64,000 nucleotides of DNA from Candidatus Spongiisociaceae bacterium. Its GTDB lineage: Bacteria > Actinomycetota > Acidimicrobiia > Spongiisociales > Spongiisociaceae. This document shows positions 38,527 through 58,075 of the stretch, in pieces. The notes under the pieces were generated by a model. That model did not search any database and had not been told where the DNA came from. It was given only the letters and a program-made list of their open reading frames with translations. The stretch spans positions 1,602,246-1,666,245 of the forward strand of contig OZ251535.1 of assembly GCA_965243165.1 (NCBI GenBank). The letters are read 5' to 3'. A program made the translations under genes and the position numbers. Positions within the stretch are counted from its first letter, which is position 1. The number at the start of each line of letters is the position of its first letter.

Positions 38527-38696
38527 CGAATAACCGGCGCTGGCGAGGGGAATGGCGGTTCTCCTTGCGTAGAGGAAGTCGGGCGGCCATGCAGGTTAGC
38601 CTGCGATACTCTGGTTGCACCCTTCGCGCTCCGACGCCCCTGCTGCCGGTGCACCGGAGCGGCGGGCAATCGGGAAGGAGCGCGGGAGAAGCGCCG

Positions 38697-40454: not shown

Positions 40455-41702
40455 TCAGTAGAGGTGTCCTTCGAGGCCGAGCAGCCATAGGGTGAGGATG
40501 GTGAGGGCGAGGCCGGCTGCGGCGCAGATCGTCCAGTCGATCAGGCGGGCGGCGAGTCTTCTGCCGGTTTTGGCGGGCGGGCGGGTGGTGTTGCGGTTTG
40601 GTTGGCGGGGGTGGTCTGGGGTGACGGCGGTGCGGGTGATTTGGTCGTGCCAGCCGCGTCGTTGGGTGTTGAAGAGGGGGGAGGCGGCGGTGAGGAGGAA
40701 GATGGGTATTCCGGCTAGGGGGATGAGGAGGGGGAGGTGGAGGGCGGCCCATCTGGCGGTTGTGCGGGTCCATCGGGGGGTTTGTCTGCCGGGGGTGCGG
40801 ATGGTTTGGATTCGGGTGAGGCGTTTGCCGATCGTTCGTCCGAGGGCGGCGGTTGTCAGGGTTTCGTAGAGGAGGAAGGGCGCCAGGAACAGACCGGCTG
40901 CGGCCGGGTAGGCGAGGAGGATGAAGGCCAAGAGGTCGACTCCGTTCGTATCGCTTCCGGTGTCTTCGTCGTTGCCGCCGAGGCCGGTCCGCATCAGGAG
41001 TTGTTCCAGCAGCGGGTTGAGGACTGTGATGCTCACGTCGTTTGTGGTTCCGTCTCTTCCCGCCGGGATGCCGGCGCGGATGCGGTCCAGCAGGTCCGCT
41101 TTCTTGGCGGGGGTGTCGACCACATCATGGAGTGCGACGGCAACTTCGATCTGTCCGGTTGTGATGTCTGGGGAAGACGTTATACCTGTTACCTCTTCGT
41201 AGCCGGATATGATGTCGTGAACGATCTGATGGCGTTTGGTGAGGCCTGCTTCGGTGAATCCCCGGTTTTCGATGATTCGGATGTCACGCGGGAAGGCTCG
41301 GACGGCTTCAACTGCCTCGGCGGGCGCTGTTCCGGTGAAGGATACAAACCCATTCACGCCGTCTTCGATCCAAGAACCTGTAAAGTCTTCCGGAAACTTT
41401 TCCCTGATTTGGTTGACCAAATAGCCGAACGGGCTTTGCCAGGCGTAATTCTCGATTGCTTCTTCGAGCGAGATGCCTTCCTGTTCTGCCAGAAATTCCA
41501 GGTCGCGGCAACGTTCTCCTGGAATTATTCCGGCGGCCAGCTGTTCGATTGGGTCCACTTTGGTCAGGGTGGTGGTAGTGACCAGAGTTCCGTATACGGG
41601 TGTACAGGTCCATGCGTTGCCGGCAGTCGGCATTGTGAGCAGGGATACCGCCAGCATTCCCAGCATCCACCCTGCCAGTGAGCTGCGCGTTCGGGTTGTC
41701 AT
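40455..41702 (-). CDS. Membrane protein with an N-terminal secreted domain homologous to the S1 protease pro-region, fused to a C-terminal RDD-family membrane domain (cassette A, gene 3)
   Basis: Signal peptide MTTRTRSSLAGWMLGMLAVSLLTMPTAGNAW. Residues ~50-230 align with the pro-region of protease 42889-44223 (EQEGISLEEAIENYAWQ...AFPRDIRIIENRGFTEAGL). C terminus carries RDD motifs (LGRTIGKRL...RRGWHD). The ATG overlaps the upstream gene stop (ATGA). Confidence 0.75.
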   Translation of the reverse strand: MTTRTRSSLAGWMLGMLAVSLLTMPTAGNAWTCTPVYGTLVTTTTLTKVDPIEQLAAGIIPGERCRDLEFLAEQEGISLEEAIENYAWQSPFGYLVNQIREKFPEDFTGSWIEDGVNGFVSFTGTAPAEAVEAVRAFPRDIRIIENRGFTEAGLTKRHQIVHDIISGYEEVTGITSSPDITTGQIEVAVALHDVVDTPAKKADLLDRIRAGIPAGRDGTTNDVSITVLNPLLEQLLMRTGLGGNDEDTGSDTNGVDLLAFILLAYPAAAGLFLAPFLLYETLTTAALGRTIGKRLTRIQTIRTPGRQTPRWTRTTARWAALHLPLLIPLAGIPIFLLTAASPLFNTQRRGWHDQITRTAVTPDHPRQPNRNTTRPPAKTGRRLAARLIDWTICAAAGLALTILTLWLLGLEGHLY

Positions 41703-42844
41703 GGGCCGCCTCGGTGTGCTTCGGAGGTTGGAACGACGATAGCGCCGGCGGCTTTGTCGTGCCATCCGCGCCGTTGGGAGTCGAAGAGGGGGGAGGCGGC
41801 TGTCAGGAAGAAGATGAGTATTCCGATGATGGGGAGTGCCAGGAGGGGAAGGTAGATCACAATCCATCTGATGCTGGCTCTCTTCCATCCTGGAACTCGG
41901 CCGTTGCCGATGCACACCACTCGGGTCTGGGTGAGAATTTTTCCGATCGTTTCTCCTCGAAGAGCAATCAGCGGCAACTCGTAGATGACCACCGAGGCTA
42001 AGACAGCAACGAAACCTATATGAAGTATAGATATAGCTATCCAGAGGTCGGATTCAGGTAACAGGCTCTGAACAGTAATCTGGAATGGTTCTATAAACGC
42101 AATACCTTTGTATATATCTATAAAAGTAGATCCTTCAAGTTCCAACAATCCTATCGACCATATCACAAGAGTGATCCCAGCTATTGAATATAGCAACCAG
42201 TCAATAGTTCGGGACAGGAACCGCTTATGCGTGGGAACTGAAAGAGAAACATTGTCCTGGATGGCCGGTGTTTTAGATGCTTGGGTAACAATTGTGCCCG
42301 CGATCTTGTCATGCCATCCGCGTCTTTGAGGGTCGAAGAGGGGGGATATAACTGTCAAGAGGAAAATTATTATTCCGATTATAGGAACCAGAAGAGGAAG
42401 ATATATTATCGCCCATCGCACGCTGGACATCTTCCATCCCGGAACGCGGCCGTTACTGTTATGAGTTACTTTGATTCCCATCATTATCTTCCCGATAGTC
42501 TGACCCCTGGCGGCGGTCATCGGAAGTTCATATAGAAGCGATGGAACCAGTAACAGGATTACACAGGCTAAGTGTATAGCAAAAATGGATAACCAAGGTT
42601 GAAAGTCAGGTACAGCATAAGTCTCAAACCATAATCTATAGGATTGTGAAGGAACTGAATCTCCACCTCCCAAGCCCACATAAGTTCTTGTAAAGCCGGT
42701 TACCCAGATTAGAGAGGACATCCCCCAGATCAGAGAGGACATCCAAAGCCAGATGCCTATAACAACATATAGTAACCAATCAATACATCGAGCTAATATG
42801 CGCCCTATCGATTCAGATTGATTGATACCGATAAGGCTCGCCAT
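41699..42844 (-). CDS. Tandem RDD-domain integral membrane protein (cassette A, gene 2)
   Basis: Two RDD units (GQTIGKIMMGIKV...RRGWHDKIAGT and GETIGKILTQTRV...RRGWHDKAAG) with multiple TM helices. Low GC. Confidence 0.75.
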   Translation of the reverse strand: MASLIGINQSESIGRILARCIDWLLYVVIGIWLWMSSLIWGMSSLIWVTGFTRTYVGLGGGDSVPSQSYRLWFETYAVPDFQPWLSIFAIHLACVILLLVPSLLYELPMTAARGQTIGKIMMGIKVTHNSNGRVPGWKMSSVRWAIIYLPLLVPIIGIIIFLLTVISPLFDPQRRGWHDKIAGTIVTQASKTPAIQDNVSLSVPTHKRFLSRTIDWLLYSIAGITLVIWSIGLLELEGSTFIDIYKGIAFIEPFQITVQSLLPESDLWIAISILHIGFVAVLASVVIYELPLIALRGETIGKILTQTRVVCIGNGRVPGWKRASIRWIVIYLPLLALPIIGILIFFLTAASPLFDSQRRGWHDKAAGAIVVPTSEAHRGGP

Positions 42845-42888: not shown

Positions 42889-44223
42889 TTATGAAGTAGC
42901 TACTGTCCAGCCTGGGAAGGCATCATCAATGTGATGAACCGGTGTAAAAAGATCCCGACGTTTTAAGCCAAATATCCAGTTGCCACTGTGAATACCGTAT
43001 GCAGTGGTTCCATGAAACCAAGGGCCTCCAGAATCACCTCCTCTGGCCTTTCTATTATGCATAGCAACCAGCTTTCGTCCTTCAGGATAGTATACGCTGC
43101 CCCTGTATACTCTGTCTACAGTGTAGCCGCTAGATTTCCCATATTTTCGCAACCATTGGCCTTCCATTGGTACTCCAGTAGATTCAACAAACTGATAATC
43201 GTTTGGTCCGCTGTCGTAACGAAATTCGTTCACAAGGGTATAGCCAGAAGGAACAGAATGTCTCTGAAGGTCCCCCCATTCTCCTTGATGTTCTATCCCC
43301 CAACCTAGCCGAAGATAAATAGAGCCGTCAATTAATCTTTGATTATTGCCACAGTGTCCTGCAGTAGAAATATGTCTCCTTCCACTCGTATGTTCAAGAA
43401 CAAAGCCCACTGTGCATGTGCTGAGATGCATTCCTCCTGTTACATCCTCATCTCCCCCGCCAGGAGTGGAGGTTACAATATTGAAAAGAACGTCTTTATT
43501 AGTCCCAGTACTGGCAACACTCCCGACTGGAAGGTTAGCTTGGAGAAGATCAAGCATAGATGTCTTCTCCTCAGGAGTAGATTCTGAGTTTTTTAGTACT
43601 ACTTCCACGGTTAGTAGTCCAGTTCCGATATCGTAGGTTGAGGCGGCTGTATCTATATTATCGTTGCCTATCACGCTATTATGAACTGAATCGAGACGTT
43701 GTCTAAGATCGGCTTCGGTGAAGCCCCGGTTCTCGATGATCTGCACGGCACGCGGGAAGGCCCGGATGGAACTCGCAGCACCGGCGGGCGCTGTTCCGGA
43801 GAAGGCCACCCAAGCTGTCAGATCTTCTTCGATCCGGGCTCCGGCGAAATCACCCGGATAATCTTGGCGGATTTCGTTGACCAAATAGGCGAGCGGGCCT
43901 TGCCAGGCGTACTTCTCGATCGCTTTGTCGAGTGAGATGCCTTCCTGTTCGGCCTGCCAGGTCAGCTGCTCGCGAAGCGCTTCGGATATTTCTCCCGCCG
44001 CGAACCGGGAAACCGGGTCGCTCGGGTTGCTCGGTGCCTTTTCGTCGGTTCCCCCTCCGCCGGAGGGTGCGCCGGTGCTGGGGGTTCCGAACCCGCCGTC
44101 GTCGGATCCGGGGGGTGAAACGGCCTGAACGGTCGAGGGGACGACCAGCGCCAACGCCAGCAACAGCAGGATGCCCGCCCTCGCCTTCGTGCGCCTCCGA
44201 ACTCTGCGTCTGCGGATCATCAT
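42889..44223 (-). CDS. Secreted S1-family serine protease, alpha-lytic protease/streptogrisin-like (S1E), with an N-terminal pro-region (cassette A, gene 1)
   Basis: Signal peptide, then a ~200-aa pro-region. Catalytic His in TAGHCG and Ser in GDSGGPWF. Paired Cys residues. Confidence 0.85.
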   Translation of the reverse strand: MMIRRRRVRRRTKARAGILLLLALALVVPSTVQAVSPPGSDDGGFGTPSTGAPSGGGGTDEKAPSNPSDPVSRFAAGEISEALREQLTWQAEQEGISLDKAIEKYAWQGPLAYLVNEIRQDYPGDFAGARIEEDLTAWVAFSGTAPAGAASSIRAFPRAVQIIENRGFTEADLRQRLDSVHNSVIGNDNIDTAASTYDIGTGLLTVEVVLKNSESTPEEKTSMLDLLQANLPVGSVASTGTNKDVLFNIVTSTPGGGDEDVTGGMHLSTCTVGFVLEHTSGRRHISTAGHCGNNQRLIDGSIYLRLGWGIEHQGEWGDLQRHSVPSGYTLVNEFRYDSGPNDYQFVESTGVPMEGQWLRKYGKSSGYTVDRVYRGSVYYPEGRKLVAMHNRKARGGDSGGPWFHGTTAYGIHSGNWIFGLKRRDLFTPVHHIDDAFPGWTVATS

Positions 44224-44420
44224 GAGATGCCTCCTGCCATCCTGCTTCTATTGCTTCTTCGAAGATATCACATCTAACAGGGTTCCGGAGGCTGAAACCG
44301 CATATTTCATAATTGTGTGCAATATGCAAAACCAAAGGATTGCATATTGTATACAATCTCAGCAAAACAGGTTAGCCTCACCGCTCGAGTCCGACTGATA
44401 CAGTTTATCTTCGCTGGCGA
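44224..44420 (-). promoter_or_regulatory. Low-GC promoter/leader of cassette A with a GntR-type palindromic operator; ~90% identical to 55130-55277 upstream of cassette B
   Basis: Near-dyad TGCAATATGCAA-N10-TTGCATATTGTA. The second arm also contains the perfect palindrome TTGTATACAA (GntR-like t.GT...AC.a). AT-rich -10-like hexamers. Confidence 0.5.
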
Positions 44421-44439
44421 GCTGATCGGTGCCGCTATT

Positions 44440-44700
44440 GGATCAATTCCCACCTCGACCAGCTTTGACGCCCCAGTCAAAGGTGCTGCGGCGGGCGAGA
44501 TGCCGCCTCGGTGTCCGCTTCGTCATCTTCACCGAGGCCTGCCGAGTCGGTGCTCCAGACCAGTCAAAGTGGGGGTGGGCTGCAGGCAGCGGAGCAGGAT
44601 GGAAGAGACAGGATCGCCAACACCTGGACAGCCGGGCGGTTCTCGACTGGGTTCGGAAGGTCTGCCGGGGTGACCGGACGTCTCTGCGGAGTGTCGGGCG
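44440..44700 (+). pseudogene. Degenerate duplicate of the polX 3' end (~75% identical to 40185-40440)
   Basis: ORF 44429..44713 translates to ...GVRFVIFTEACRVGAPDQSKWGW...DRQHLD.RAVLDWVRKV, against PolX ...GVRFVISTDAHRVGELAQSKWGV...DRIANTWPAEQFLDWVREV. Together with the intact polX end it brackets cassette A. Confidence 0.65.
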
Positions 44701-44723
44701 GCGGCGGCGTTAGGCTCCCGTCC

Positions 44724-45083
44724 ATGGACGGGCAAGGTACGGGAACGGGCGCGGACGCCGTCGGCCGGGGCGGAAGTTCTCTGGACCGGTTGGTGCGGGC
44801 CCACCCCCATGGGGTGATCCTCACGGTCTGGGTGACGCCTCGGGCGGTGCGCAGCGAGGTGGCGGGGCCGCATGGATCGTATCTGCGGGTGCGGGTCGCG
44901 GCCCCCGCCGAGGGGGGGCGGGCCAACCAGGCCGTTGTCCGCCTGCTTTCCAGCACCTTCGGGTGCCGGGTGGATCTGTTGTCCGGCGCCAGGAGCCGCA
45001 TCAAGCGCATGCTGCTGCGGGGCGCTGACCCCGACTCGGTGACCGCCGCCGTCGCCGCCGTTGCCCGGCGGGGCCGCAGATGA
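44724..45083 (+). CDS. DUF167 (YggU-like) protein
   Basis: Motif ...ILTVWVTPRAVRSEVAGPHGSYLRVRVAAPAEGGRANQAVVRLL.., characteristic of DUF167. Confidence 0.6.
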   Translation: MDGQGTGTGADAVGRGGSSLDRLVRAHPHGVILTVWVTPRAVRSEVAGPHGSYLRVRVAAPAEGGRANQAVVRLLSSTFGCRVDLLSGARSRIKRMLLRGADPDSVTAAVAAVARRGRR

Positions 45084-45138
45084 TGCGCAGGCGGGGCGGC
45101 CCTGCTACTTTCACGGCGTCCAGCAACGCCGGAGGTGG

Positions 45139-45531
45139 ATGATGCCGGTTCTGCGCCGAAGAAAGAAGCTGGCCGATTCAACGCTCGCCTATTTCAAGAG
45201 GATCCTCCAAGAGCGGGAGCGGGAGCTGTTGGCGGTCATTGCCGAACACGAGGCGGAGCGCCAAGAGGTGCGCATGGCCGAGACGGCGGCCGAGCGCAGC
45301 CCCGACCCCGACTCGGCCGACGGCGGGTCCATGGCTTTCGAGTTCGAGAAGGAGCTGTCTGTCGACCGCAACACCCGAGACATCCTGGCCCAGGTCCGCT
45401 CGGCCTTGGCGGCGGTGGAGGACGGCGTCTACGGCGTGTGCCGGGTTTGCCGGAGCCCCATCAGGGTGGCGCGGCTCCGAGCCCTTCCCCACACCAGCCT
45501 ATGCGTGGCTTGCGCCTCGAAAAGGCGCTGA
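45139..45531 (+). CDS. DksA/TraR-family C4 zinc-finger transcription factor
   Basis: Coiled-coil N terminus. C-terminal CRVC...CVAC zinc finger. ggaggtgg RBS. Confidence 0.75.
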   Translation: MMPVLRRRKKLADSTLAYFKRILQERERELLAVIAEHEAERQEVRMAETAAERSPDPDSADGGSMAFEFEKELSVDRNTRDILAQVRSALAAVEDGVYGVCRVCRSPIRVARLRALPHTSLCVACASKRR

Positions 45532-45980
45532 CCGTCCGGCGGCGCCGGGCCGCGCTGGTTGGGGCGGTGGTGTTGACGGCCGATCAGATCACCAAGCTGT
45601 GGGCCCGCACCGCCCTGGCGGACGGCGGCATCGAGGTGATACCGGGTTTCCTGCGGTTCCATCTGGGCGAGAACGCCGGCTCGGCCTTCTCCCTCTTCCA
45701 GGGCCAGGGCCCGCTGCTGGGGCTGGCGGCCGCCGCCGCCTCCGTTTTCATCCTGGTGATAGTCGAGCGGGCGGGCGCCCGTCTGGAGGTGGCCGGGCTT
45801 TCCTTGATCCTGGGCGGCGCGGTCGGCAACCTGGCCGACCGGGTGGTGAAAGGCCCCTGGTTGACCGGGACGGTCACAGATTTCATCGACTTCAGCTTCT
45901 GGCCGAACTTCAACCTGGCCGACTCGGCGATCACCCTGGGCGTGGCGGGGATGCTGTGGGCGGCGAGACGAGGCGGATGA
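45501..45980 (+). CDS. lspA: Lipoprotein signal peptidase II
   Basis: Conserved LspA regions: ADQITKLWA, NAGSAFSLF, FNLADSAITLG. Confidence 0.8.
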   Translation: MRGLRLEKALTVRRRRAALVGAVVLTADQITKLWARTALADGGIEVIPGFLRFHLGENAGSAFSLFQGQGPLLGLAAAAASVFILVIVERAGARLEVAGLSLILGGAVGNLADRVVKGPWLTGTVTDFIDFSFWPNFNLADSAITLGVAGMLWAARRGG

Positions 45981-46924
45981 CCGTCCCCGAATCGATGGAG
46001 GGGGAACGGTTCGACGCCGCCCTCGCCCGGTTGGCGGGGGTGAGCCGCTCCCGGGCGCGGCGGCTGATCGAGTCGGGCGAGGCTGGCCTGTCCCCGGTGG
46101 GCGGGGCGGGCGCCCCCGGCCGGACCGGCGTCCGGCGCATCCGGCTGAACACGCGGGCGGCGGCGGGCGACCGTATCTGGTTCCGGCCGCCGGAGGAACC
46201 CGTCCTCGGCCCCGAACCCATCCCCCTCGCCGTGCTCTACGAGGATCCGCACCTGGCGGTGATCGACAAACCGGCCGGCCTGGTCGTCCACCCCGGGGCG
46301 GGCAACTGGGGCGGCACCCTCGTATCGGCCCTGCTTCACTGCTGGCCGGAGGTGGAAGGGGTGGGGGAGCACCCCCGGTGGGGCATCGTCCACCGGCTCG
46401 ACAAGGACACCTCCGGGGCGATGGCGGTCGCCCGCCGCCCGGAGGCGCACCGCGGCCTGTCGGCGGCGCTGGCGGCCCGCCGGGTGAATAGGAGCTACCT
46501 GGCGCTGGTGCACGGCGCCTTCACCGCCGGCGCCGGGACCATCGACGCCCCCATCGACCGCCGCCGGGGCCGCCGCTTCGTCGGCCCGGACGGGAAACCG
46601 GCGGTTACCCGCTACCGTCGTCTGTCGGAGTGGCGGCGGCCCGGTCTCAGCCTTTTGGAGATCACCCTGGAGACGGGCCGCACCCACCAGATCAGGGTCC
46701 ACCTGGAGTCGATCGGGCGGCGGGTGGTGGGCGACGCCCTCTACGGCAAGCCGGGCGGCGGAGGGGCGCCCGATCCCGGGAGGCAGTGGCTGCATTCCCG
46801 GCTTCTGAGCTTCACCCACCCGATCACGGGGGCGCCCGTCGAGGCGGAGGCCCCCCTCCCCCCGGAGCTGCGGTCTTCCCTGGATGAGCTCGGCCCCCCC
46901 GACCTGGGCGCCGCCCCCGGGTGA
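45977..46924 (+). CDS. RluA-family 23S rRNA pseudouridine synthase (RluD-like)
   Basis: S4 domain plus the catalytic motif HRLDKDTSG. ATGA overlap with lspA. Confidence 0.85.
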   Translation: MTVPESMEGERFDAALARLAGVSRSRARRLIESGEAGLSPVGGAGAPGRTGVRRIRLNTRAAAGDRIWFRPPEEPVLGPEPIPLAVLYEDPHLAVIDKPAGLVVHPGAGNWGGTLVSALLHCWPEVEGVGEHPRWGIVHRLDKDTSGAMAVARRPEAHRGLSAALAARRVNRSYLALVHGAFTAGAGTIDAPIDRRRGRRFVGPDGKPAVTRYRRLSEWRRPGLSLLEITLETGRTHQIRVHLESIGRRVVGDALYGKPGGGGAPDPGRQWLHSRLLSFTHPITGAPVEAEAPLPPELRSSLDELGPPDLGAAPG

Positions 46925-46927
46925 AGC

Positions 46928-47225
46928 AAGGAACCGAAGCGGTCGAGCCTGCGAAAGTTCTCCGAACATACGTACCCCTAGCCGGAAGCCCGAAAATTTG
47001 GTATACCTATTGGGCTGAAGCACAAACACCGCCGCGAGTTCTGGAGAGGGCGGCGGTCAGAGAGACGGATCCCGTTCGGTCCGGCCCCGTCGGGCCGGGG
47101 GCGGCCTTGTGCGGCCCGGCGGATTTTCGTTCAAGGAGGCGGCGGCGGGGGATGGGCCCGGGTTTGCCGGCGGGGAGGGGCCGATTTTCGCGTTCTCGAG
47201 GGCATTTGGGTTGGATTGAAGGAGC
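46928..47225 (+). repeat. Full copy of the ~300-bp non-coding repeat element; inverted partner at 61141-61470
   Basis: ~90% identity over ~290 bp to the reverse complement of 61.2-61.47 kb. Indels between copies break every reading frame. Contains the palindrome ggtatacc and GC hairpins (ccggccccgtcgggccgg). Confidence 0.7.
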
Positions 47226-47403
47226 GGACGGCGGCGTGTTTGCCTCAGCGGGTTTGCCGAAAGGAGGGTATCTATGGCCTATATCGGCAGATGTCATGTT
47301 TGAGGCGCAACGGGCGCTGGCGAGTCGGTCTATGCCTGACGGCAGGGGCGGCCGACCGCTCGCTCGAGGCTCCCGGGCAGCCAGCTGGGCCGCTCTCCAA
47401 GGG

Positions 47404-47589
47404 TCAGTCGTCTTCGGTTTCGGTCGGGGAGGGTTCCGGATCGGGGTCGGCCGGAGAAATGTGGGAGTAGTAGCCCGCTATGTAGAACACTATCTGCAGC
47501 AGGACGAACACGCCCAAGGTTATCCACGGCCACCGAACCATCAGTTCCCCGAGTTCACCGACCAGCCTAACCACCGCATTCCCCTTCAA
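47404..47589 (-). pseudogene. Duplicated 3'-end fragment of the DUF2339 gene (tandem duplicate of 47650-47835)
   Basis: The ORF ends ...SPADPDPEPSPTETEDD, against the DUF2339 C terminus ...SPVPPADPDPEPSPTETEEAA. About 170 bp of nucleotide identity, including the 3' flank. Confidence 0.6.
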
Positions 47590-47733
47590 CCTCGACTGGC
47601 ATCATCGTAGTTTACATCGTTGATTGACATCGGGAACGCAACGGGTGCCCGCGAGTCGGTCTATGCCTGACGGCAGGGGCGGCCGACCGCTCGCTCGAGG
47701 CCCCCGGGCAGCCGGCCGGGCCGTTTCCAGGGG

Positions 47734-50475
47734 TCAGGCGGCTTCTTCGGTTTCGGTCGGGGAGGGTTCCGGATCGGGGTCGGCCGGAGGGACGGGGGAG
47801 AAGTAGCCCACTATCAGCAGCAGGACGCCCACGCCCAGGAAGGACACCACCCGGGCCAGGGTTCCGGTGTTGCCGAGGTCTACCAGGAACAGCTTCACCA
47901 CCACCACTCCCATCAGGGCGGCGCCTGCGATCCATACCGGACGCCGGACGAGCCGCCCGCCGGCCACCATCGCGCCCAGCCCGGCCAGCCCCCACAGGAT
48001 CGACAGGGACGCCTGCAGCAGGGTGGAGTCGAACATGTCTCCGAATCGGAACGGCACATCGAACCAATGGTGGACGGTGCGCACCGCACTCATCGTCAAC
48101 AGCAGCATCCCGAAAGCGGCCGTCCATCCAACCCAGTTGCGCCGGACGACGGACAGTTCCCAGCCCTCGAAGGGGGCGGTCCGGCGCCGCCACAGGAAAG
48201 CCGCGGCAGCCGTCAGGACGACGGCCGCCTCCAGCGGGTTGAGCAGCGGCAGATAGACCAGCGGACGCGGATCGCCGTCGGATGTCAGCAGGAGCACCGC
48301 CGACGCCGCCGTCAGCCCCGCCAGCAGCATCCCCGCCCCGGCGGTGAGGTAGACGCGCCGATACGGGCGGAGAGGCCAGGGGATGCGGCGCCCGTTCCAC
48401 AGCGGGATGGAGGCGGCCGCCAGCGCGGCGGCGACCCCCGCCGACGCGGGCCACACCCCGTCCGCCGCCCGATCGACCAGCGCGGACGCCTCCAAGGCGG
48501 CGAGCGCTGCAACCAGCCAGAGGCCCCCTGCGTGCAGGGCGGCCGCCAGTTTCGGGAACTGGTCCTCCCGCAGCCGCAGGAACAGGTAGAACACCGCCAG
48601 CGCGGCCGGCCAGGCCGCCCATCCGTATTCGTCGAACGGATGGCCGAGCCGCTCGGAATCCTCCCAGACAACTGTTATGAGCAGCGCCGCCGCCATGGCC
48701 GGCAGGACCGCCGTTCCCAGCGCCGCCAGCCGCGGCCAGCGCAGATGAGGCGCCGCCAGCGCCGCCCCTCCCAGACAGGCGGTCGTCCACACCAGCACGG
48801 CGGCCAGTTCGGCGTAGGAGAGCTGGTTGGCGATTTCCGTCGACCCGCCCCACAGGAGCCACGCCGCCCCCCATATCATCCCCATCCAAACCGCCGTCAG
48901 GCCGGAGGGGGTTCGGTGCCGCTCCCGGTCGTACAGCCAGGCCGAGAACAGCCCGGCCGCGGCCAGGAGGGCCGACCCGGCCAGATAGGGGTTGACCACC
49001 GGGAGGGCGTCGGCCGGATAGGGCAGCTCGACCAGCAGGAACCACATGAAGCTGACCCCCGCCAAGCCTTGGAGAAAAGCGCCGCCCGCCGCCAGCAGAC
49101 GGAAACGGCGGCGCAGGCCCATCCACACCACCGCCGCTCCTTCCGCCGCCCATATCAGGGATATGTAGAAGGCGTCGAAGGCCAGCGGGACGGCCAGCGA
49201 GGCGAAGAACAGGCCCAAGCCCAAGTGGGCGTCGCTCAGCAGCCTCCGCTCCCGGAAGACCCGCCAGTGGGCGGCCAGCAGCCCGCCGTGGAGGGCGGCC
49301 AGCCCCAAGGCGCTGAAGGCCGGTCCGTATTCGGTGTGGCCGACCAGCTCGTTCTGCAACAGGAAAACGGTGAACGGAGCTCCGAAGATCAGCGGCCCGT
49401 CTACCGTCCACCGGGCGGCCGGGCTGCGCTCCCGCCCCCGGATCTCCAGAAGCAGGGGCGCCGATATGTACATGACCGCGAACAGGGCCAGGAATATCTG
49501 GGCGGAGGCCATTTGGACGGGGTCGTAGCGGAGCAGCAGCCAGTGGGCGCTCACCCCGTATGTGAAGATGAAGCCCAAGAGGCTCAGCTCCGGCCAGCCT
49601 TTGAACCAGGTGAGGGCCAGCACCGCGGCGCCGAGCACCGCCATGTAGGTGAAGAGGAGCAGATGGTTCCCGTCGTCCACCGAGATCAACACCGGCGCCA
49701 GGAACCCGCCGATGAGGCCCAGCACCGACAGGGCGCGGGAGTCCTGCACCGTTGACAGCGCTCCGGTCCACACGGTGATCGCCACCACCGCGGCTATAGC
49801 GGCGGGGCCGGGCAGCACCTCGTAGCGGATGAGCGAGGCGTACACGGTCAGATAGAGGACCGCCGACCCTCCTCCCTGCAGGCTGAGCGCGTACATCAGA
49901 TTGCGCCGCCGCACCCACAGCCCCACCCCGGTCATGGCCGCTCCGAACAGGGCGGCCGCGGCCAGCCGCATTTCCAGGGTGAGGGTGATCCAGCCCCGGT
50001 TCAAGGCGGTCTGGATCAGGAATCCCAGCCCGATCAACGACAACAGGACCCCCGCTTTCACCGGGGCGTTGCCGGCGGTGAACCAGTTCTTGACGGCCCG
50101 CGCCGGTGCGCTCAGCAGCGCGGCGAGAGGGTCCTGCCGCGGAGGGTCCTCTTCGATTCGAGCCGGGGCGGCGGCAACCGGTTCGGGGCGCGGCCCCGCC
50201 GGAGACGGACGGGCGGCGGCAACCGGCGCGGGAGCCGCCCGGGGTGCGGCGGCCGGGGGCGGCGGAGCGGGGGCGGCGGGCGGAGCCTCCTTCGCGGGCG
50301 GGGCCGGTGCGGCCGCCTCGGCTTCGGGCTTTTGGCCGGCCTCCAGCTGTTCTACCCGTTTCCGGAGGCGGGTCACCTCGGCGCTCAATCGGCTGATCCG
50401 CACGGCCATAGGGATGAGGACGGGCGCCGTCGCCGCCAAGACGAACAAGACGGGCAAGACGATGTACAAACCCAC
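47734..50475 (-). CDS. DUF2339-family large polytopic membrane protein with an N-terminal coiled coil
   Basis: 913 aa. A GTG start at 50475 follows a ggaggggct RBS. Coiled coil (RISRLSAEVTRLRKRVEQLEAG), a Pro/Ala-rich linker, then >20 TM helices. The track ORF's N terminus (MDPHNRQMGRPPPPP...) is read-through of the upstream repeat. Confidence 0.75.
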   Translation of the reverse strand: MGLYIVLPVLFVLAATAPVLIPMAVRISRLSAEVTRLRKRVEQLEAGQKPEAEAAAPAPPAKEAPPAAPAPPPPAAAPRAAPAPVAAARPSPAGPRPEPVAAAPARIEEDPPRQDPLAALLSAPARAVKNWFTAGNAPVKAGVLLSLIGLGFLIQTALNRGWITLTLEMRLAAAALFGAAMTGVGLWVRRRNLMYALSLQGGGSAVLYLTVYASLIRYEVLPGPAAIAAVVAITVWTGALSTVQDSRALSVLGLIGGFLAPVLISVDDGNHLLLFTYMAVLGAAVLALTWFKGWPELSLLGFIFTYGVSAHWLLLRYDPVQMASAQIFLALFAVMYISAPLLLEIRGRERSPAARWTVDGPLIFGAPFTVFLLQNELVGHTEYGPAFSALGLAALHGGLLAAHWRVFRERRLLSDAHLGLGLFFASLAVPLAFDAFYISLIWAAEGAAVVWMGLRRRFRLLAAGGAFLQGLAGVSFMWFLLVELPYPADALPVVNPYLAGSALLAAAGLFSAWLYDRERHRTPSGLTAVWMGMIWGAAWLLWGGSTEIANQLSYAELAAVLVWTTACLGGAALAAPHLRWPRLAALGTAVLPAMAAALLITVVWEDSERLGHPFDEYGWAAWPAALAVFYLFLRLREDQFPKLAAALHAGGLWLVAALAALEASALVDRAADGVWPASAGVAAALAAASIPLWNGRRIPWPLRPYRRVYLTAGAGMLLAGLTAASAVLLLTSDGDPRPLVYLPLLNPLEAAVVLTAAAAFLWRRRTAPFEGWELSVVRRNWVGWTAAFGMLLLTMSAVRTVHHWFDVPFRFGDMFDSTLLQASLSILWGLAGLGAMVAGGRLVRRPVWIAGAALMGVVVVKLFLVDLGNTGTLARVVSFLGVGVLLLIVGYFSPVPPADPDPEPSPTETEEAA

Positions 50476-50567
50476 AGCCCCTCCCTTCTGGGCCGATCCT
50501 AGCGAAGGAGAGTCTTCCTGTTCGGACTGTGTTCCTTCCGCCGGTCGATGCGCCGGGGTGATTCCGT

Positions 50568-51050
50568 TCAGTAGAGGTGTCCTTCGAAGCCGAGCAGCCA
50601 TAGGGTGAGGATGGTGAGGGCGAGGCCGGATGCGGTGCAGATCGTCCAGTCGATCAGGCGGGCGGCGAGCCTTCTGCCGGCTGCGGCGGGCGGGCGGGTG
50701 GTGTTTCGGCTTGGTTGGGGGTCTGGGGTTACGGCGGTGCGGGTGATTTTGTCGTGCCATCCGCGTCGTTGGGGGTCGAAGAGGGGGGAGGCGGCGGTGA
50801 GGAGGAAGATGGGTATTCCGGCCAGGGGGATGAGCAGGGGGAGGTGGAGGGCGGCCCATCTGGCGGTTGTGCGGGTCCATCTTGGGGTTTGTCCGCCGGG
50901 GGTGCGGATGGTTTGGATTCGGGTGAGGCGTTTACCGATCGTTCGTCCGAGGGCGGCGGTTGCCAGGGTTTCGTAGAGAAGGAAGGGTGCCAGGAACAGG
51001 CCGGCGGCGGCCAGGTAGACGAGGAGCAACAGCACCAAGGGGTCGACGCC
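50568..51050 (-). repeat. ~480-bp direct repeat (3' end of the pro-region-RDD fusion gene). Copies at 40455-40935 (~90% id) and a partial third copy at 51712-51845
   Basis: Nucleotide alignment of the two cassette termini. The encoded C termini (…RTIGKRLTRIQTIRTPG.QTPRWTRTTARWAALHLPLLIPLAGIPIFLLTAASPLF...LGLEGHLY) are nearly identical. The segment is high-GC, unlike the rest of the cassettes. Confidence 0.75.
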
Positions 51051-51701
51051 GCGGCCGGCATCGCTTTCACCACCCGGCACATCTGGCTCAGTTCCGTCTC
51101 CGGTGTTCATCAACATTTCGAGGCGGTGCAGGAGTGGATTCATAACGATCAGGTCAATGTCATCTATGGTTCCGTCTCTTCCGGCTGGAATTTCAGCACG
51201 GATGCGGTCTAGTATGGTTGCTTTCTTGGCGGGAGTGTCGACCGAATCGTCGAGCACGAAGTTCACCGTGAATTGTCCTGTGGCTATATCGAAGGTAGAT
51301 CCAGTTTCTATTACGCTTTCGTTGTTCCATACGATATCATGAACGATGGTGAGTCGTTCTTTGAGTTGTGCTTCGGTGTAGCCGCGGTCCTCGATGATTT
51401 GTATGTCGCGGGGAAACGCCAGAATTGTTTCTACGGCGCCGGCGGGGGCTTCTCCAGCGAAGGCGATCCAAACCGTCTGGTCGTCTTCGATCCGAGCTCC
51501 TGCAAAATCTTCTGGATATTCTTCCCGGATATCGTTGACCATCGTAGACAGTGATCCCTTTGTAAGGGTGGCAGCGGCGGCCAGAGCATCGGATACGAGT
51601 GTACTGGCCCATGCGTTGCCGGCGGTCAACGCTGCAAGTAGGAAAACCGCCAGCATTCCCAGCAACCGCCATGTCTGTGAGCTTCGCCTCCGGGTACTCA
51701 T
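50568..51701 (-). CDS. Pro-region-like domain fused to an RDD membrane domain (cassette B, gene 4). Shorter pro-like domain than its paralogs
   Basis: Signal peptide MSTRRRSSQTWRLLGMLAVFLLAALTAGNAWA. Pro-like segment (…ILAFPRDIQIIEDRGYTEAQL…). RDD C terminus. Start overlaps the upstream gene stop. Confidence 0.75.
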   Translation of the reverse strand: MSTRRRSSQTWRLLGMLAVFLLAALTAGNAWASTLVSDALAAAATLTKGSLSTMVNDIREEYPEDFAGARIEDDQTVWIAFAGEAPAGAVETILAFPRDIQIIEDRGYTEAQLKERLTIVHDIVWNNESVIETGSTFDIATGQFTVNFVLDDSVDTPAKKATILDRIRAEIPAGRDGTIDDIDLIVMNPLLHRLEMLMNTGDGTEPDVPGGESDAGRGVDPLVLLLLVYLAAAGLFLAPFLLYETLATAALGRTIGKRLTRIQTIRTPGGQTPRWTRTTARWAALHLPLLIPLAGIPIFLLTAASPLFDPQRRGWHDKITRTAVTPDPQPSRNTTRPPAAAGRRLAARLIDWTICTASGLALTILTLWLLGFEGHLY

Positions 51702-52576
51702 CGGCCGCCTCCTGTTTGCCGATTGTTCGTCCGAGGGCGGCGGCTGCCAGGGTTTCGTAGGAGGAAGAGCGTCAGGAGCAGGCTGGCGGCGGCTAAGCAG
51801 ACGAGGAGTAACAGCACCAGGGGGTCAACGCCGCGGCCGACTTCGCTTTCACCATCCGGCATACCTAGCTCGGGTCCGCCTTCGATGCGATCGACAACCT
51901 TCAGGTCGATGTCATCTATGGTTCCGTCTCTTCCCGCCGGTATTTCAGCGCGGATGCGGTTTAGTATGGTTGCTTTCTTGGCGGGGGTATCGATTGAATC
52001 ATGCAGTACGATAGTAACTTGGATCTGTCCGGTAGTGATGGAGTAAGTCGATATGTAATCTATCACCTCTTCGTAGCTGGACGCGATTCCGGAAACAATC
52101 CCGTGGCGTTTGTTGAGGGTTGCTTCGGTGAATCCCCGGTTTTCGATGATTCGGATGGGGTGTGGGAAGGCTCGGATGGCTTCAACGGCCTCGGCGGGCG
52201 CTGTTCCGGTGAAGGATACAAAACCATTCACGTCGTTCCTGATCCAAGAGCCTGTAAAGTCTTCGGGATATTTTTCCCTGATTTCGTTGACTAAATAGGA
52301 GAACGCGTCTTGCCAGGCGTACCTCTCAATGGATTCTTCGAGCGAGATGCCTTCCTGTTCTGCTATCAATTCCAGGTCTTGGCAAAGGTATCCAGAGATT
52401 ATTCCGGCGGCCAGCTGTTCAACTGGGTCGGCCTTTGTCAGGGTAGTATTGGTGTCTGGAGTGTCGGATACGGTTGTACAGGTCCATGCGTTGCCGGCGG
52501 TCGGCGCTGCGAGCAGGGAAACCGTCAGTATTCCCAGCAACCGCCATGCCAATGAACTGCGGGCTCGGGTTTTCAT
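51698..52576 (-). CDS. Pro-region-like secreted protein, a C-terminally truncated paralog of the pro-region-RDD fusions (cassette B, gene 3); likely a degenerate copy
   Basis: The N-terminal 230 aa are ~75% identical to 40455..41702. The TM region ends in the out-of-frame tail ...RNPGSRRPRTNNRQTGGGR. The alternative frame at 51712-51760 still encodes AAALGRTIGK (RDD motif), so a frameshift plus deletion is inferred. Confidence 0.6.
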   Translation of the reverse strand: MKTRARSSLAWRLLGILTVSLLAAPTAGNAWTCTTVSDTPDTNTTLTKADPVEQLAAGIISGYLCQDLELIAEQEGISLEESIERYAWQDAFSYLVNEIREKYPEDFTGSWIRNDVNGFVSFTGTAPAEAVEAIRAFPHPIRIIENRGFTEATLNKRHGIVSGIASSYEEVIDYISTYSITTGQIQVTIVLHDSIDTPAKKATILNRIRAEIPAGRDGTIDDIDLKVVDRIEGGPELGMPDGESEVGRGVDPLVLLLLVCLAAASLLLTLFLLRNPGSRRPRTNNRQTGGGR

Positions 52577-53730
52577 GAGCTGCCCCTCGACTGTTGGCGG
52601 CCTTGAAGCCCTTCGGAGGTTGGAACGACGATGGTGCCTGCGGCTTTGTCGTGCCATCCGCGCCGTTGGGGGTCGAAGAGGGGGGAGGCGGCTGTCAGAA
52701 GGAAGACCAGTATTCCGATGATGGGTAGTGCGAGGAGGGGAAGGTAGAGCACCATCCATCTTATGCTGGCTTTCTTCCATCCGGGAACTTGGCCGTTGTC
52801 GATGCATACTACTTGGGTCTTGGTGAGTATTTTTCCGATTGTTTCTCCTCGAAGAGCAGTCAGCGGCAACTCGTAGATAACTACCGAGATGAAGACAATG
52901 GTGAAGGAATTATGAATTCCAAATACAGCCAACCAGAAGTCGGATTCATATATCATCCGTCTTATACCCTCAATCTGATAAGAGATGCTCAATGGTTCTA
53001 TGGCAACCCTGCTATTGTATAGGTCTATGAAGGTTGATCCTTCGAGTTCTAGCAATCCAATTGACCATATCAGAAAGGTAACTCCAGCTATTGAATATAG
53101 CAGCCAGTCGATAGTTCGGGCCAGCAACCGTTTGTGTGCACCGGTTGGAAAGAGAAGTGATGTTCTTGATTCTTTGTCTTTACTTACTGGAGCGACGAGT
53201 GTGCCAGCGATTTTGTCGTGCCAGCCGTGTCGTTGAGAGTTGAACAGCGGTGATGCGGTTGTCAGGAGGAAAATCAGTATTCCGATTATTGGAATCAGAA
53301 GAGGAAGGTAGAGTATCGCCCATCTTATGCTGGATCTTGTCCATCCTGGAAAGTGGCCCTTATTGTTGTGGGTTACTTTGATTCCCATCAGTATCTTCCC
53401 GGCTGTTTGCCCTCTCGCGGCGATCAGCGGTAGTTCATATAGAAGAGATGGAAGTAGTAATAGTATTACACCGGCCAGATGTATAGCAAAGATAGATGTC
53501 CAGGGTTGGAGGTCAGGTATCGCATAGGTTTCGATCCATGTTACCGGAGGCGGCGGAGGGTCAGGTTCAACCTGATAAGTACTCCGTTTTGTTCCCGTCA
53601 AGAGTGCTATCCAATCTTGAGATGATAATAAAAGAGTTATGCCTGTAATAACATAGATCGTCCAATCGATGCACCGAGCTAATACGCGCCTCGTTGATTC
53701 AGATTGGTTGATCTTTATGATGCTTGCCAT
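52573..53730 (-). CDS. Tandem RDD-domain membrane protein (cassette B, gene 2), paralog of 41699..42844
   Basis: Start MASIIKINQSES, matching MASLIGINQSES in the paralog. Two RDD units (GQTAGKILMGIKV...RHGWHDKIAG and GETIGKILTKTQV...RRGWHDKAAG). Confidence 0.7.
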   Translation of the reverse strand: MASIIKINQSESTRRVLARCIDWTIYVITGITLLLSSQDWIALLTGTKRSTYQVEPDPPPPPVTWIETYAIPDLQPWTSIFAIHLAGVILLLLPSLLYELPLIAARGQTAGKILMGIKVTHNNKGHFPGWTRSSIRWAILYLPLLIPIIGILIFLLTTASPLFNSQRHGWHDKIAGTLVAPVSKDKESRTSLLFPTGAHKRLLARTIDWLLYSIAGVTFLIWSIGLLELEGSTFIDLYNSRVAIEPLSISYQIEGIRRMIYESDFWLAVFGIHNSFTIVFISVVIYELPLTALRGETIGKILTKTQVVCIDNGQVPGWKKASIRWMVLYLPLLALPIIGILVFLLTAASPLFDPQRRGWHDKAAGTIVVPTSEGLQGRQQSRGSS

Positions 53731-53779
53731 TTTCTTTTTGCCCTCCTCGTCTCCTGCTATTACCTTTATAGCCGATGGT

Positions 53780-55129
53780 TTATGAAGTAGCGACATCCCA
53801 ACCAGGAAAGGCGTCTTCAATATGATGGACCGGAGTAAAAAGGCTTCTCCTTTTACTGGCTGGACGCCCTATATCATTTTTGTAGCCAAAATGAATACCA
53901 TAGGCGGTGTCTCCCCGGAACCATGGACCCCCAGAATCTCCTCCTTGAGTTGTATGACTAAACATTGCTACTAGATGTTCTGCTATACCGGCATTAACAA
54001 CACCTCTGTAGACCCAATCTGATTTATAACCTGTGGACATTCCATAATTTAATAATACTTGACCTTCCACTGGGACTCCGGTTGACAAGATCGGCCGAGA
54101 GTGCCGCCCGCTGCTATTATAACGAATACTATTTGTCAGAGTGTGTCCTGAAGGTACGGAATGCCGTTGAAGGTCTCCCCATCGTCCTTCATGTTCGTCT
54201 TCAAAAGTCAATGTTATCCTAATATTGCCGTCCCTCAATGTCTGATTGTTGGAACAGTGGCCTGCAGTGGAGATATTCCTCTCCCCGTTTGAGTTCTCAA
54301 GAACAAACCCTGCTGTGCACCGGCTGAGATGTGTCCCGCCTCGTATGTCGGATTCAGCTCCGCCCGCTATGTCACTTACGACATTCAGAGTCACGTCGCT
54401 GGTTCCAACGTTGGCAACGCTTCCGATCGGGAGTTCGGCGCGTAGAAGATCCGACAGTGCTTTCTTCTGTGCGGGGGTGTCAGCCGAATCCTCGATTGCG
54501 ACGGTTACCTCCAACCGGCCGGTAGCGAGGTCGTAGGTCGAGACAGCGTCTTCGACCTTGTCGTTTGCCATCACGCTGTCATGAACGGCGGTGAGGCGCC
54601 GATTGAGGCCAGCTTCGGTGAAACCCCGGTTCTCGATGATTTGCACGGCGCGCGGGAAGGCGCGGATGGAGCTCGCAGCACCGGCGGGCGCCGTTCCGGA
54701 GAAGGCCACCCAGGCTGTCAGATCTTCTTCGATCCGGGCTCCGGCGAAATCATTCGGATAATCTTGGCGGATCTCGTTGACCAGATAGGCGAGGGGGCCT
54801 TGCCATGCGTACTTCTCAATCGCTTTGTCGAGTGAGATGCCTTCCTGTTCGGCCTGCCAGGTCAGCTGTTCGCGAAGGGCTTCGGAGATCTCTCCCGCCG
54901 CGAACCGGGCAACCGGGTCACTGGGGCTGCTCGGCGCCTCTTCGTTGCCTCCCCCTCCGCTGGCTGGTACACCGGCGCCGGGGCCGGGGGTTCCGAACCC
55001 GCCGTCGTCGGATCCGGGGGGTGAAGCGGCCTGAACGGCCAAGGGGAGGACCAGCGCCAGCGCCAGCAACAGCAGGATGCCCGCCCTCGCCTTCGTGCGC
55101 CTCCGAGCTCTGCGTCTGCGGATCATCAT
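53780..55129 (-). CDS. Secreted S1E (alpha-lytic/streptogrisin-like) serine protease with pro-region (cassette B, gene 1), paralog of 42889..44223
   Basis: Signal peptide. Pro-region ~90% identical to the cassette A protease. The mature domain has diverged (TAGHCSNN, GDSGGPWF). Confidence 0.85.
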   Translation of the reverse strand: MMIRRRRARRRTKARAGILLLLALALVLPLAVQAASPPGSDDGGFGTPGPGAGVPASGGGGNEEAPSSPSDPVARFAAGEISEALREQLTWQAEQEGISLDKAIEKYAWQGPLAYLVNEIRQDYPNDFAGARIEEDLTAWVAFSGTAPAGAASSIRAFPRAVQIIENRGFTEAGLNRRLTAVHDSVMANDKVEDAVSTYDLATGRLEVTVAIEDSADTPAQKKALSDLLRAELPIGSVANVGTSDVTLNVVSDIAGGAESDIRGGTHLSRCTAGFVLENSNGERNISTAGHCSNNQTLRDGNIRITLTFEDEHEGRWGDLQRHSVPSGHTLTNSIRYNSSGRHSRPILSTGVPVEGQVLLNYGMSTGYKSDWVYRGVVNAGIAEHLVAMFSHTTQGGDSGGPWFRGDTAYGIHFGYKNDIGRPASKRRSLFTPVHHIEDAFPGWDVATS

Positions 55130-55277
55130 GAGATTCCTCCTGTCATCCGGCTTCCTATTGCTTCTTCGAAGATATCACATCGAATAGGGTTCCGGAGGCT
55201 GAAACCGCCTATTTTGTAATTGTGTGCAATATGCAAAACCGGAAGATTGCATATTGTATACAATCTCAGCAAACCGG
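55130..55277 (-). promoter_or_regulatory. Promoter/operator region of cassette B, lying between the GntR gene and the protease gene
   Basis: Contains the same TGCAATATGCAA / TTGCATATTGTATACAA dyads as the cassette A leader. Low GC. Confidence 0.5.
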
Positions 55278-55976
55278 TCAGGCCATGGCGTTGTTTCGGC
55301 GCGCTGATATCAGTTGTTGTATTTCGGAAGAGACTGCCGTCAGGTGCTCGGCGATCCACTGCTCGGCCCGGTCGGAGTCCTTGGCTCGGATGGCTTCCGT
55401 CAGGACTTTGTACATCGAATGCCGGTGCGGGGCTGCGTCGACGCTCATCCAGTAGCGGCCCAGTCCGGTGCGGAGCCTGCCCACGATGGCGGCGGTCAGC
55501 GGGCAGTGGGCGGCGGTGTAGACGCGCTGGTAGAACCGGTCGGTGAGCTCCCGCCGCCGGGCGGGGTTATCCTCGCCGTCGATCTGCTTCGCCAGTTCGG
55601 TGAGCTCGTCCACGGCGGCGGGGGTGATCCGTTCGATCGCCAACCGCAGGGCGAAGGTCTCCAACAAGATGCGGAGCTGGTAGGTCTCCTCCAGCTCCTC
55701 GGGTTCGAGCATTCGGACCGTTGCCCCCCGGTGGGGGGCGTAATCCACCAGGCCTTCCGCGGCGAGGGTGTGGAGGGCGGCGGTCACCGGCACCCGCGAG
55801 GTGTTCAGCTCTTTGGCCAGGGCCGCTTGGCGCAGCCTTTGCCCCGGTTTCAGGACGCCGGTGATGATCGCCTCGCGCAGAGCGGCCGTTACGGCTTCTT
55901 CCACCGTGCTGTAACGCAGGTTGGCCCGGTGGGCTATCTCTGCGAGAGTTCCTTCTGCGGCCATCCGCCCGGCCAT
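55278..55976 (-). CDS. GntR-family transcriptional regulator (FadR/FCD subfamily)
   Basis: N-terminal wHTH (...GQRLRQAALAKELNTSRVPVTAALHTLAAEGLV). C-terminal all-helical FCD domain. Sits immediately upstream of the cassette B operator. Confidence 0.8.
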   Translation of the reverse strand: MAGRMAAEGTLAEIAHRANLRYSTVEEAVTAALREAIITGVLKPGQRLRQAALAKELNTSRVPVTAALHTLAAEGLVDYAPHRGATVRMLEPEELEETYQLRILLETFALRLAIERITPAAVDELTELAKQIDGEDNPARRRELTDRFYQRVYTAAHCPLTAAIVGRLRTGLGRYWMSVDAAPHRHSMYKVLTEAIRAKDSDRAEQWIAEHLTAVSSEIQQLISARRNNAMA

Positions 55977-56009
55977 ATCCCGCCCCGGCTGTGGGTGTCT
56001 CCGCCCAGG

Positions 56010-56981: not shown

Positions 56982-56987
56982 GGCGGT

Positions 56988-57953
<966 letters not shown>

Positions 57954-58075
57954 GACGGCGGTCTGCCCGTCCGGGGATGCGTCTCCGGATGCGGCGGCCG
58001 CTGCTGAGCCGGCGCCGGAGGCGGGGGAGTCGGAGAAGCCGAAGTTCTCGCCGGCGCTGGCCGTTCTCGCCGCCG

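Follow-up and report, generated by a model that had tools for sequence, protein, structure and literature searches.

A composite inverted repeat predicted to place two secreted-protease cassettes under one FadR-subfamily GntR regulator in an uncultured acidimicrobiial lineage

Results

Two protease cassettes and a single GntR gene

The window, by which we mean the whole 64-kb stretch of DNA analyzed here, carries two cassettes of secreted S1-like protease and RDD membrane protein genes, A and B, together with their leaders and a gene for a GntR-family regulator. All of these features lie on the minus strand:

40455 to about 41700, minus strand: pro-region/RDD fusion of cassette A
41699..42844, minus strand: double-RDD membrane protein of cassette A
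42889..44223, minus strand: protease A1, 444 aa, first gene of cassette A, with a signal peptide, a pro-region and an S1-type domain
44224..44366, minus strand: leader A, shared non-coding DNA 5′ of protease gene A1
44230..44235, minus strand: ribosome-binding site AGGAGG of A1, 6 nt 5′ of the ATG, read from the sequence
50568..51701, 51698..52807 and 52573..53820, minus strand: RDD proteins of cassette B
53780..55129, minus strand: protease B1, 449 aa, first gene of cassette B
55130..55277, minus strand: leader B, the entire intergenic gap from the GntR stop codon to the B1 start codon
55278..55976, minus strand: GntR-family regulator, FadR subfamily, FCD (VanR-like) group, 232 aa, with Pfam GntR and FCD domains

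Cassette A has three genes, those for protease A1, the double-RDD membrane protein and the pro-region/RDD fusion, and a PolX gene on the plus strand (38565–40439) is convergent with its 3′ end. The translation of A1 contains the motifs TAGHCG and GDSGGP, and its Pfam Trypsin match scores 19.7 bits, slightly under the 20.6 cut-off. Cassette B begins with protease B1, which is 69% identical to A1 overall and 86–98% identical over the first 150 codons, and includes a DUF2339 protein as well as its RDD proteins. It is co-directional with the GntR gene, whose stop codon lies 14 nt upstream of the inverted repeat in leader B described below, while the genes 5′ of cassette A are on the opposite strand. 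No tRNA genes were found in 44000–64000.

As originally predicted, the gene directly upstream of leader B encodes a FadR-type GntR regulator. Its product matches Pfam GntR (PF00392; E = 1.8 × 10−15, 56.8 bits against a cut-off of 27, residues 27–87) and has the all-helical C-terminal effector and oligomerization domain FCD (PF07729; E = 1.8 × 10−19, 70.8 bits against a cut-off of 24.3, residues 97–213). It is the sole GntR homologue in the window, and cassette B is thus the only one with such a gene beside it. The nearest solved structures are those of FCD regulators (7xp0, McbR 4p9f and Atu1419 6z74), and the helix-turn-helix region is strongly conserved among 10 orthologues. Close homologues come only from uncultured Acidimicrobiia-like metagenomic contigs, and an exact-sequence look-up of the protein returned no record. 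Because NCBIfam gave no equivalog-level match, no ligand can be assigned to the protein, and the metabolic genes near it are not conserved across the genomic contexts that we compared. The FCD domain by itself makes gating by a small-molecule effector plausible.

Leader similarity and a block duplication

Leaders A and B are identical at 132 of 144 positions (91.7%) when 44224–44366 is aligned with 55130–55273. The identity of about 90% that had been claimed for the leaders holds over these intervals and drops to 81% over the longer pair 44224–44390 and 55130–55277, with homology stopping at about 44366–44385, near the position of the GntR stop codon. Similarity had also been described as a feature of the leaders; it does cover them, but self-comparison of the window shows that the similar block extends into the first ~510 nt of the protease genes (43712–44366 versus 54612–55273, 91.5%). 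Over the first 150 codons of A1 and B1, third-codon positions are 82–100% identical. Because these synonymous sites of the adjoining coding sequence are as conserved as the leader, we take the whole block to be young or homogenized, and we rejected conservation between the two leaders as evidence of selection.

Three of the related loci introduced below (L002, L004 and L015) carry one cassette, flanked by hydrolase/GntR genes on one side and by a convergent PolX gene on the other. In the window, the final 220 nt of PolX (40205–40426) recur at 44441–44661 with 80% identity, just past leader A. Since relatives have a single cassette and the PolX 3′ end recurs in this position, the window's two cassettes evidently go back to the duplication of a block that ran from the PolX 3′ end through the cassette to the leader. 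Roughly the final 15 nt of the GntR gene contain one of the breakpoints; by this reading of the sequence, the cassette A copy took the promoter region and the repeat with it and left the regulator gene behind.

The surrounding DNA has several further peculiarities. The PolX fragment and cassette B are now separated by about 6 kb with DUF167, DksA-like, LspA-like, RluD-like and DUF2339 genes, of which the LspA-like and RluD-like ones were named by reading their translations only. The GC content of the cassettes is 40–50% against a background of roughly 70% (also at 41699–42844 and 52573–53820), and third-position GC in the protease genes starts at 0.84 at the 5′ end and declines to 0.32 (A1) or 0.18 (B1) toward the 3′ end. 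At the protein level, the 5′ third of A1 and B1 is 86–98% identical and the protease domain only 50–60%, a mosaic that points to domain replacement or a foreign source. Just beyond the DUF2339 gene lies a second copy of its 3′ end, 89% identical (47306–47481 versus 47637–47814), and a 285-nt segment at 46935–47218 has an inverted 90% copy 14 kb away at 61187–61467, both of which are further signs of local rearrangement.

A 46-bp composite inverted repeat in both leaders

An inverted-repeat finder placed one composite element in leader A, and leader B carries its counterpart, each with a perfect and a degenerate palindrome:

44312..44357, minus strand: 46-bp composite inverted repeat A, arms 44312–44329 and 44340–44357
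44347..44356, no strand: perfect palindrome TTGTATACAA of the TKGT-N2-ACMA type, in the upstream (promoter-proximal) arm of A
44313..44322, no strand: degenerate palindrome TTGTGTGCAA, matching TTGTATACAA at 8/10 positions, in the downstream arm of A
55219..55264, minus strand: 46-bp composite inverted repeat B, arms 55219–55236 and 55247–55264
55254..55263, no strand: perfect palindrome TTGTATACAA in B
55220..55229, no strand: degenerate palindrome TTGTGTGCAA in B

Each repeat consists of two 18-nt arms, complementary at 16 of 18 positions (89%), around a 10-nt spacer. The sense strand of repeat A reads ATTGTATACAATATGCAA-tcctttggtt-TTGCATATTGCACACAAT; the arms are the same in B, and the spacers differ at three positions (tcttccggtt in B). 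The arm pattern is ATTGTRTRCAAWRTRCAA, that is, a TTGTRTRCAA dyad followed 3 nt on by a further TRCAA box, which places these extra boxes ~9–10 nt from the center of the dyad. The two dyads of one element lie 34 bp apart, center to center. In the upstream arm the dyad is perfect (TTGT-AT-ACAA) and in the downstream arm it matches at 8/10 positions (TTGT-GT-GCAA).

The original prediction had described the motif TGTGCAATATGCAA-N10-TTGCATATTGTATACAA, including the perfect palindrome TTGTATACAA, in both leaders and had likened it to GntR-family operators. We found it at 44316–44356 and 55223–55263, and TTGTATACAA fits the FadR-subfamily TKGT-N2-ACMA class. The palindrome, however, is only part of the site, which is the larger 46-bp composite with its 18-nt arms.

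The 46-bp element is a non-chance feature. Allowing one mismatch, TTGTATACAA matches the 64-kb window exactly twice against 0.16 matches expected, and none of 100 shuffles reached two; the 30-nt core CAATATGCAA-N10-TTGCATATTG, allowing up to three mismatches, likewise matches the window twice against 0.00 expected. Motif and position weight matrix (PWM) scans found no further operator copies in the window, the GntR/E1 operon upstream included. With no site 5′ of the GntR gene or of its upstream operon, the window gives no sign of the autoregulation that is frequent, if not obligatory, in the subfamily. We also considered whether the repeat marks a cassette end or a recombination site, and ruled this out given that there is one copy per cassette and that the element is also present without a cassette (L005, L013).

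The element accompanies GntR orthologues in other genomes

We retrieved loci by way of GntR orthologues and of protease homologues and searched them for arms with the consensus and the PWM, by which real arms scored 27–37 bits and background remained below 10–20 bits. Choosing loci by their GntR or protease homology ties the sample to the hypothesis, and only the genome-wide motif match described below is unbiased. The compared loci were as follows:

L001: GntR orthologue 95%; element present, between GntR and protease; protease present
L002/L003: GntR orthologue 81%; element present, between GntR and protease; protease present
L004: GntR orthologue 81%; element present, between GntR and protease; protease present
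L006/L007: GntR orthologue 66%; element present, both arms identical to the window's (36/36); protease present
L008: GntR orthologue 59%; two-arm element before the protease; protease present, 4 kb downstream of GntR
L016: truncated GntR, 2.3 kb downstream of the element; element before the protease; protease present (46%)
L015: no GntR in 17 kb; element present; protease present (60%); neighborhood that of the window
L005/L009: GntR orthologue 68%; element present; no protease within 20 kb; neighborhood that of the window
L013 (marine contig): GntR orthologue 55%; perfect 18/18 repeat, 1.4 kb from GntR; no protease nearby
L014: GntR orthologue 52%, with an FCD deletion; no element; 64-aa protease remnant only
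L017/L018: no GntR; no element; distant protease homologue (39%); no RDD gene

Outside the window, the arms are kept in nine independent loci while spacer and flanks diverge. In an alignment of 11 elements, 27 of the 46 columns do not vary, all of them in the arms except T19, the first spacer base; otherwise the 10-nt spacer and the flanks show complete divergence. The original prediction had made the presence of the palindrome in orthologous cassettes a test, and it is indeed found 5′ of the protease gene in L001, L002/L003, L004, L006/L007, L008, L015 and L016. More generally, the element lies at most 5 kb from every examined GntR orthologue of at least 55% identity (55–95%), in four genomic contexts, and it follows GntR also at two loci with no protease nearby, L005/L009 and L013. 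The element sits between divergent secreted-protein/lipoprotein genes in L005/L009 and between divergent small genes in L013, where no protease occurs within 18–20 kb. In L006/L007, the genomic neighborhood is unrelated to that of the window and the leader outside the arms is unalignable. A single arm stands alone in L008, 5′ of the gene for a 342-aa secreted protein that precedes GntR; the arm is therefore a unit in itself, which is how a protein site should behave. No site was found in L014 or L017/L018, where the best PWM score was below 7 bits.

A scan of 185,579 species-representative genomes with the two-arm pattern returned one locus, L009, in the Acidimicrobiia MAG OY282370.1. This is the single two-arm match on a 3.0-Mb chromosome; it falls at a locus homologous to L005 and has a GntR orthologue ~1.4 kb away, beyond the end of the fetched stretch L009. 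The pattern had no match in viral contigs, and the metagenome matches L011 and L012 were discarded as AT-rich chance matches.

Because the arms are conserved and the linkage holds across loci, the element is evidently under selection, and its constant companion in the loci compared appears to be the GntR gene rather than the protease. The element and cassette of L015, with no GntR gene within 17 kb, suggest a natural precedent for control in trans; this arrangement is compatible with trans control and equally with a different binder.

Several of these loci have features of their own. The E1-alpha gene of L015 is split into two ORFs of 169 and 162 aa (4775–5742), which may be a frameshift or an assembly error. 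In L014 (8628–10633), where no operator was found, a 64-aa C-terminal protease remnant is accompanied by an RDD gene and by a GntR orthologue whose FCD domain lacks 26 residues; the locus appears to be a decayed version of the module. In L005 (10770–13584), L009 (1–2684) and L008 (8405–9739), the operator adjoins genes for acidic secreted proteins or lipoproteins of 342–388 aa and for tandem lipoprotein paralogues of 184/197 aa with no Pfam domain. No homologues of these secreted-protein and lipoprotein genes were found in the window; by their position they look like further regulon members.

Promoter position and a proposed mechanism

A candidate promoter of the σ70 type, P1, overlaps the repeat in both leaders:

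55253..55281, minus strand: candidate P1 of cassette B, CTGACC-17 nt-TACAAT (consensus scan)
44346..44351, minus strand: candidate −10 TACAAT of P1, cassette A (our own scan)

P1 of cassette B, which matches the consensus at 9/12 positions (1 found versus 0.2 expected in shuffles), is the only promoter-like site that the scan found in leader B. The −35 of P1 overlaps the stop codon of GntR, and the −10 lies within the upstream arm. In cassette A the −10 is paired with a weak −35, CTAACC at 44370–44375, across an 18-nt spacer, and a stricter scan did not report P1 there. As the genes upstream of cassette A lie on the other strand, its promoter must lie in the leader. In the general form CTGACC/TTGACC, 16–18 nt, TACAAT, P1 is the best σ70-like match in both leaders and in L001, L002, L004, L005 and L013, reaching 10/12 in L004 (TTGACC-16-TACAAT). 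L005 and L013, with the element between divergent genes, have TATACAAT in both arms, which would give each direction its own −10.

Other loci depart from this picture. The TACAAT −10 is not kept in L008 and L016 (TGCAAT and TGCGAT, respectively), and no σ70-like promoter was found at the P1 position in L006, L008 or L016; the better promoter of L006, TTGACT-16-TAGCTT, is downstream of the element. A block GTGATATMTT...AGAAGCAATAGRAAGC 3′ of the repeat is conserved among loci with 60–95% related proteins (the window at 44224–44311 and 55130–55218, L002, L004 and L015), and its GTGATATMTT part also in L001. The block may serve as another promoter or as a 5′-UTR element, with GTGATATMTT, ~47 nt upstream of the ATG, as a possible alternative −10. 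In view of L006, L008, L016 and this block, the sign of regulation is something that we infer.

We propose that the 46-bp element in each leader would serve as a two-site operator for the FCD-type GntR protein encoded at 55278–55976, with the dyads bound by two GntR dimers or, depending on the presumed oligomeric state, by one tetramer. If P1 is the promoter, the element would cover about −18 to +28, a classical geometry for repression by occlusion, and the candidate −10 inside the upstream arm suggests that mode as well. The bound regulator would block RNA polymerase and keep the protease-RDD operon repressed, and a ligand at the FCD domain would release it. With identical arms in the two leaders, a protein that binds the B element should also bind the A element, so that a single GntR protein would act in cis on cassette B and in trans on cassette A. 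That one FadR-subfamily GntR acts on both cassettes was the central claim of the original prediction; with the cross-genome linkage and the identical arms in its favor, we consider it probable. Binding, repression, oligomeric state and effector control are all predicted parts of this scheme.

Alternative explanations

The main rival supposes that the element is the operator of another, unlinked regulator encoded elsewhere, and that GntR is a frequent neighbor with other duties, for example the regulation of the E1-alpha, E1-beta and hydrolase genes. We regard this as unlikely. GntR does follow E1/hydrolase genes on the same strand after a short gap in the window (33 nt), L001, L002–L004 and L005; L015 has kept the element and lost GntR; and the window lacks an autoregulatory site for GntR. 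Yet L006, L008, L013 and L016 have no E1/hydrolase context and GntR and the element still stay together there, GntR is the only regulator gene common to the compared loci, and the site matches the FadR-subfamily TKGT-N2-ACMA pattern (PMC4494728). A variant with the same binder, which we rate a little lower again, has GntR act as an activator or as a roadblock to read-through, with transcription starting from a TATCTT/TATATT box ~47 nt before the ATG or coming from the GntR gene. The conserved GTGATATMTT block downstream of the element and the downstream position of the best promoter-like site of L006 speak for it, as do the co-directional arrangement of GntR and cassette B and an element-to-ATG distance of 133–141 nt in 8 of 9 protease leaders. 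With such a promoter the element would be centered near −80, atypical for a repressor. Against this variant, the box has no acceptable −35 in the window, where the consensus scan finds P1 only, and where FCD-type relatives with GTA-TAC sites have been characterized, they repress from sites that overlap −10 boxes (PMC7797058, PMC11472048).

Inverted repeats may also act as nucleic-acid hairpins, here as a terminator or attenuator after GntR or as a 5′ stem-loop that stabilizes or gates the protease mRNA. An 18-bp stem is possible, with 89.9% of cells paired across 11 sequences and two-sided changes at pairs 13–34 and 15–32, and the fold of the leader RNA is slightly more stable than those of shuffles (z = −1.9). 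On most measures, however, covariation is not clearly above shuffles, and mismatches at pairs 6–41 and 8–39 are conserved in 9/11 and 7/11 sequences. Neither leader has a U-tract following a G+C-rich stem or a terminator call on either strand, and Rfam matches of the leader are only to miRNA and snoRNA models, at 18–19 bits against gathering scores of 39–54. A lone arm in L008 looks functional, the L015 element has no upstream gene to terminate, and a transcript from P1 would begin within the element and so could not form the stem. The arm pattern thus looks like two related protein sites rather than a selected stem, and we hold a hairpin function to be improbable. Least credible of all is that the leader similarity is a mere by-product of recent duplication or gene conversion with no regulatory meaning. 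The third positions of A1 and B1 are as similar as the leaders, and the PolX 3′ end is duplicated on the far side of leader A, as a by-product would have it; but the arms are conserved where GntR is only 55–66% identical and the flanking non-coding DNA is unalignable, and protease identities of 46–75% argue against the loci being recent horizontal copies of one another.

Discussion

Comparison with characterized FadR-subfamily operators

Operators of the FadR subfamily share an A/T-rich palindromic consensus with TKGT/ACMA boxes, in which GT and AC are 3 nt apart in most groups and 2 nt apart in the GntR, HypR, UxuR, MdcY and PrpR groups (PMC4494728); weaker extra half-site boxes are often found 7–12 nt from the operator center (Suvorova et al. 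2015, PMC4494728). The GTA-TAC class of sites includes those of Bacillus subtilis GntR (ATACTTGTATACAAGTAT), Atu1419 (ATGTATACAT) and UxuR (CTAGTATACTAG) (PMC11472048). With TTGTATACAA, TTGTGTGCAA 34 bp away and the inner boxes, the element described here appears to fit this class well. A literature search for the literal palindrome together with 'GntR' gave an irrelevant match only.

Atu1419 of Agrobacterium fabrum is an FCD-type repressor whose palindromes, a perfect one paired with an 8/10 degenerate one, overlap −10 boxes (PMC7797058), and it is among the PDB sequence matches of the window's GntR (E = 4.9 × 10−11, residues 31–133). The two systems share the FCD-type domain, a 10-bp GTA-TAC palindrome (ATGTATACAT there, TTGTATACAA here), the pairing of a perfect palindrome with an 8/10 copy and the overlap with a −10, which here belongs to a candidate promoter. 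They differ in that the Atu1419 sites are 109–190 bp apart with looping by a tetramer, whereas the dyads here are 34 bp apart within one compact repeat, and in that Atu1419 controls hydroxycinnamate catabolism and the predicted target here is a secreted protease operon.

The operator of B. subtilis GntR has an identical core, TTGTATACAA, and the same 2-nt GT-AC spacing (PMC11472048, PMC4494728), a comparison that concerns the operator only, NCBIfam having assigned the window's protein to no equivalog. That operator is a single 18-bp palindrome, and its regulator, encoded by the first gene of the operon that it represses, responds to gluconate; in the window, by contrast, the site is double and downstream of the regulator gene, and the predicted targets are a secreted protease and RDD membrane proteins. 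Cooperative binding of several dimers has precedent among FadR-subfamily operators (PMC8012715). The flanking TRCAA boxes of the element fall within the 7–12-nt range and recall multi-box operators (NanR, (GGTATA)3; Suvorova et al. 2015), but box sequence and geometry differ here, and cooperative binding to the element is likewise a prediction.

Wider meaning

One 5.6-kb metagenomic contig, L010, is phage-like, with a terminase large subunit (phrog_2). At 600–735 it carries four tandem 34-bp units, TTGTACTTTGTATACAATGTGCAATCCCAGAAAG, whose TTGTATACAA dyads are 34 bp apart as in the window's element, and a separate two-arm element lies at 2387–2423, where a 116-aa ORF begins. The contig shows no GntR gene and has no match in IMG/VR. 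As something of a long shot, GntR and its 46-bp operator might form a portable control module with changing cargo (mostly the protease-RDD genes, and in L005/L009, L008 and L013 genes for lipoproteins or secreted proteins), an architecture that would also have been taken up by phage. If that were true, an L010-type phage could read or titrate the host GntR signal, timing its own genes or de-repressing the host's secreted protease.

A FadR-subfamily repressor with a TKGT/ACMA operator over the promoter is textbook regulation, and we claim no new mechanism. The predicted GntR regulator is here tied to a very rare secreted S1-like protease/RDD cassette: only 30 homologues were found at E < 1 × 10−10 among 5.8 billion proteins. 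For an FCD-type GntR of an uncultured Acidimicrobiia lineage, this gives a testable predicted regulon and operator. The locus also illustrates how a duplicated operon can stay under a single regulator when promoter and operator are copied and the regulator gene is not. The value of the finding lies in annotation and in a handle on the signal that would switch the protease on.
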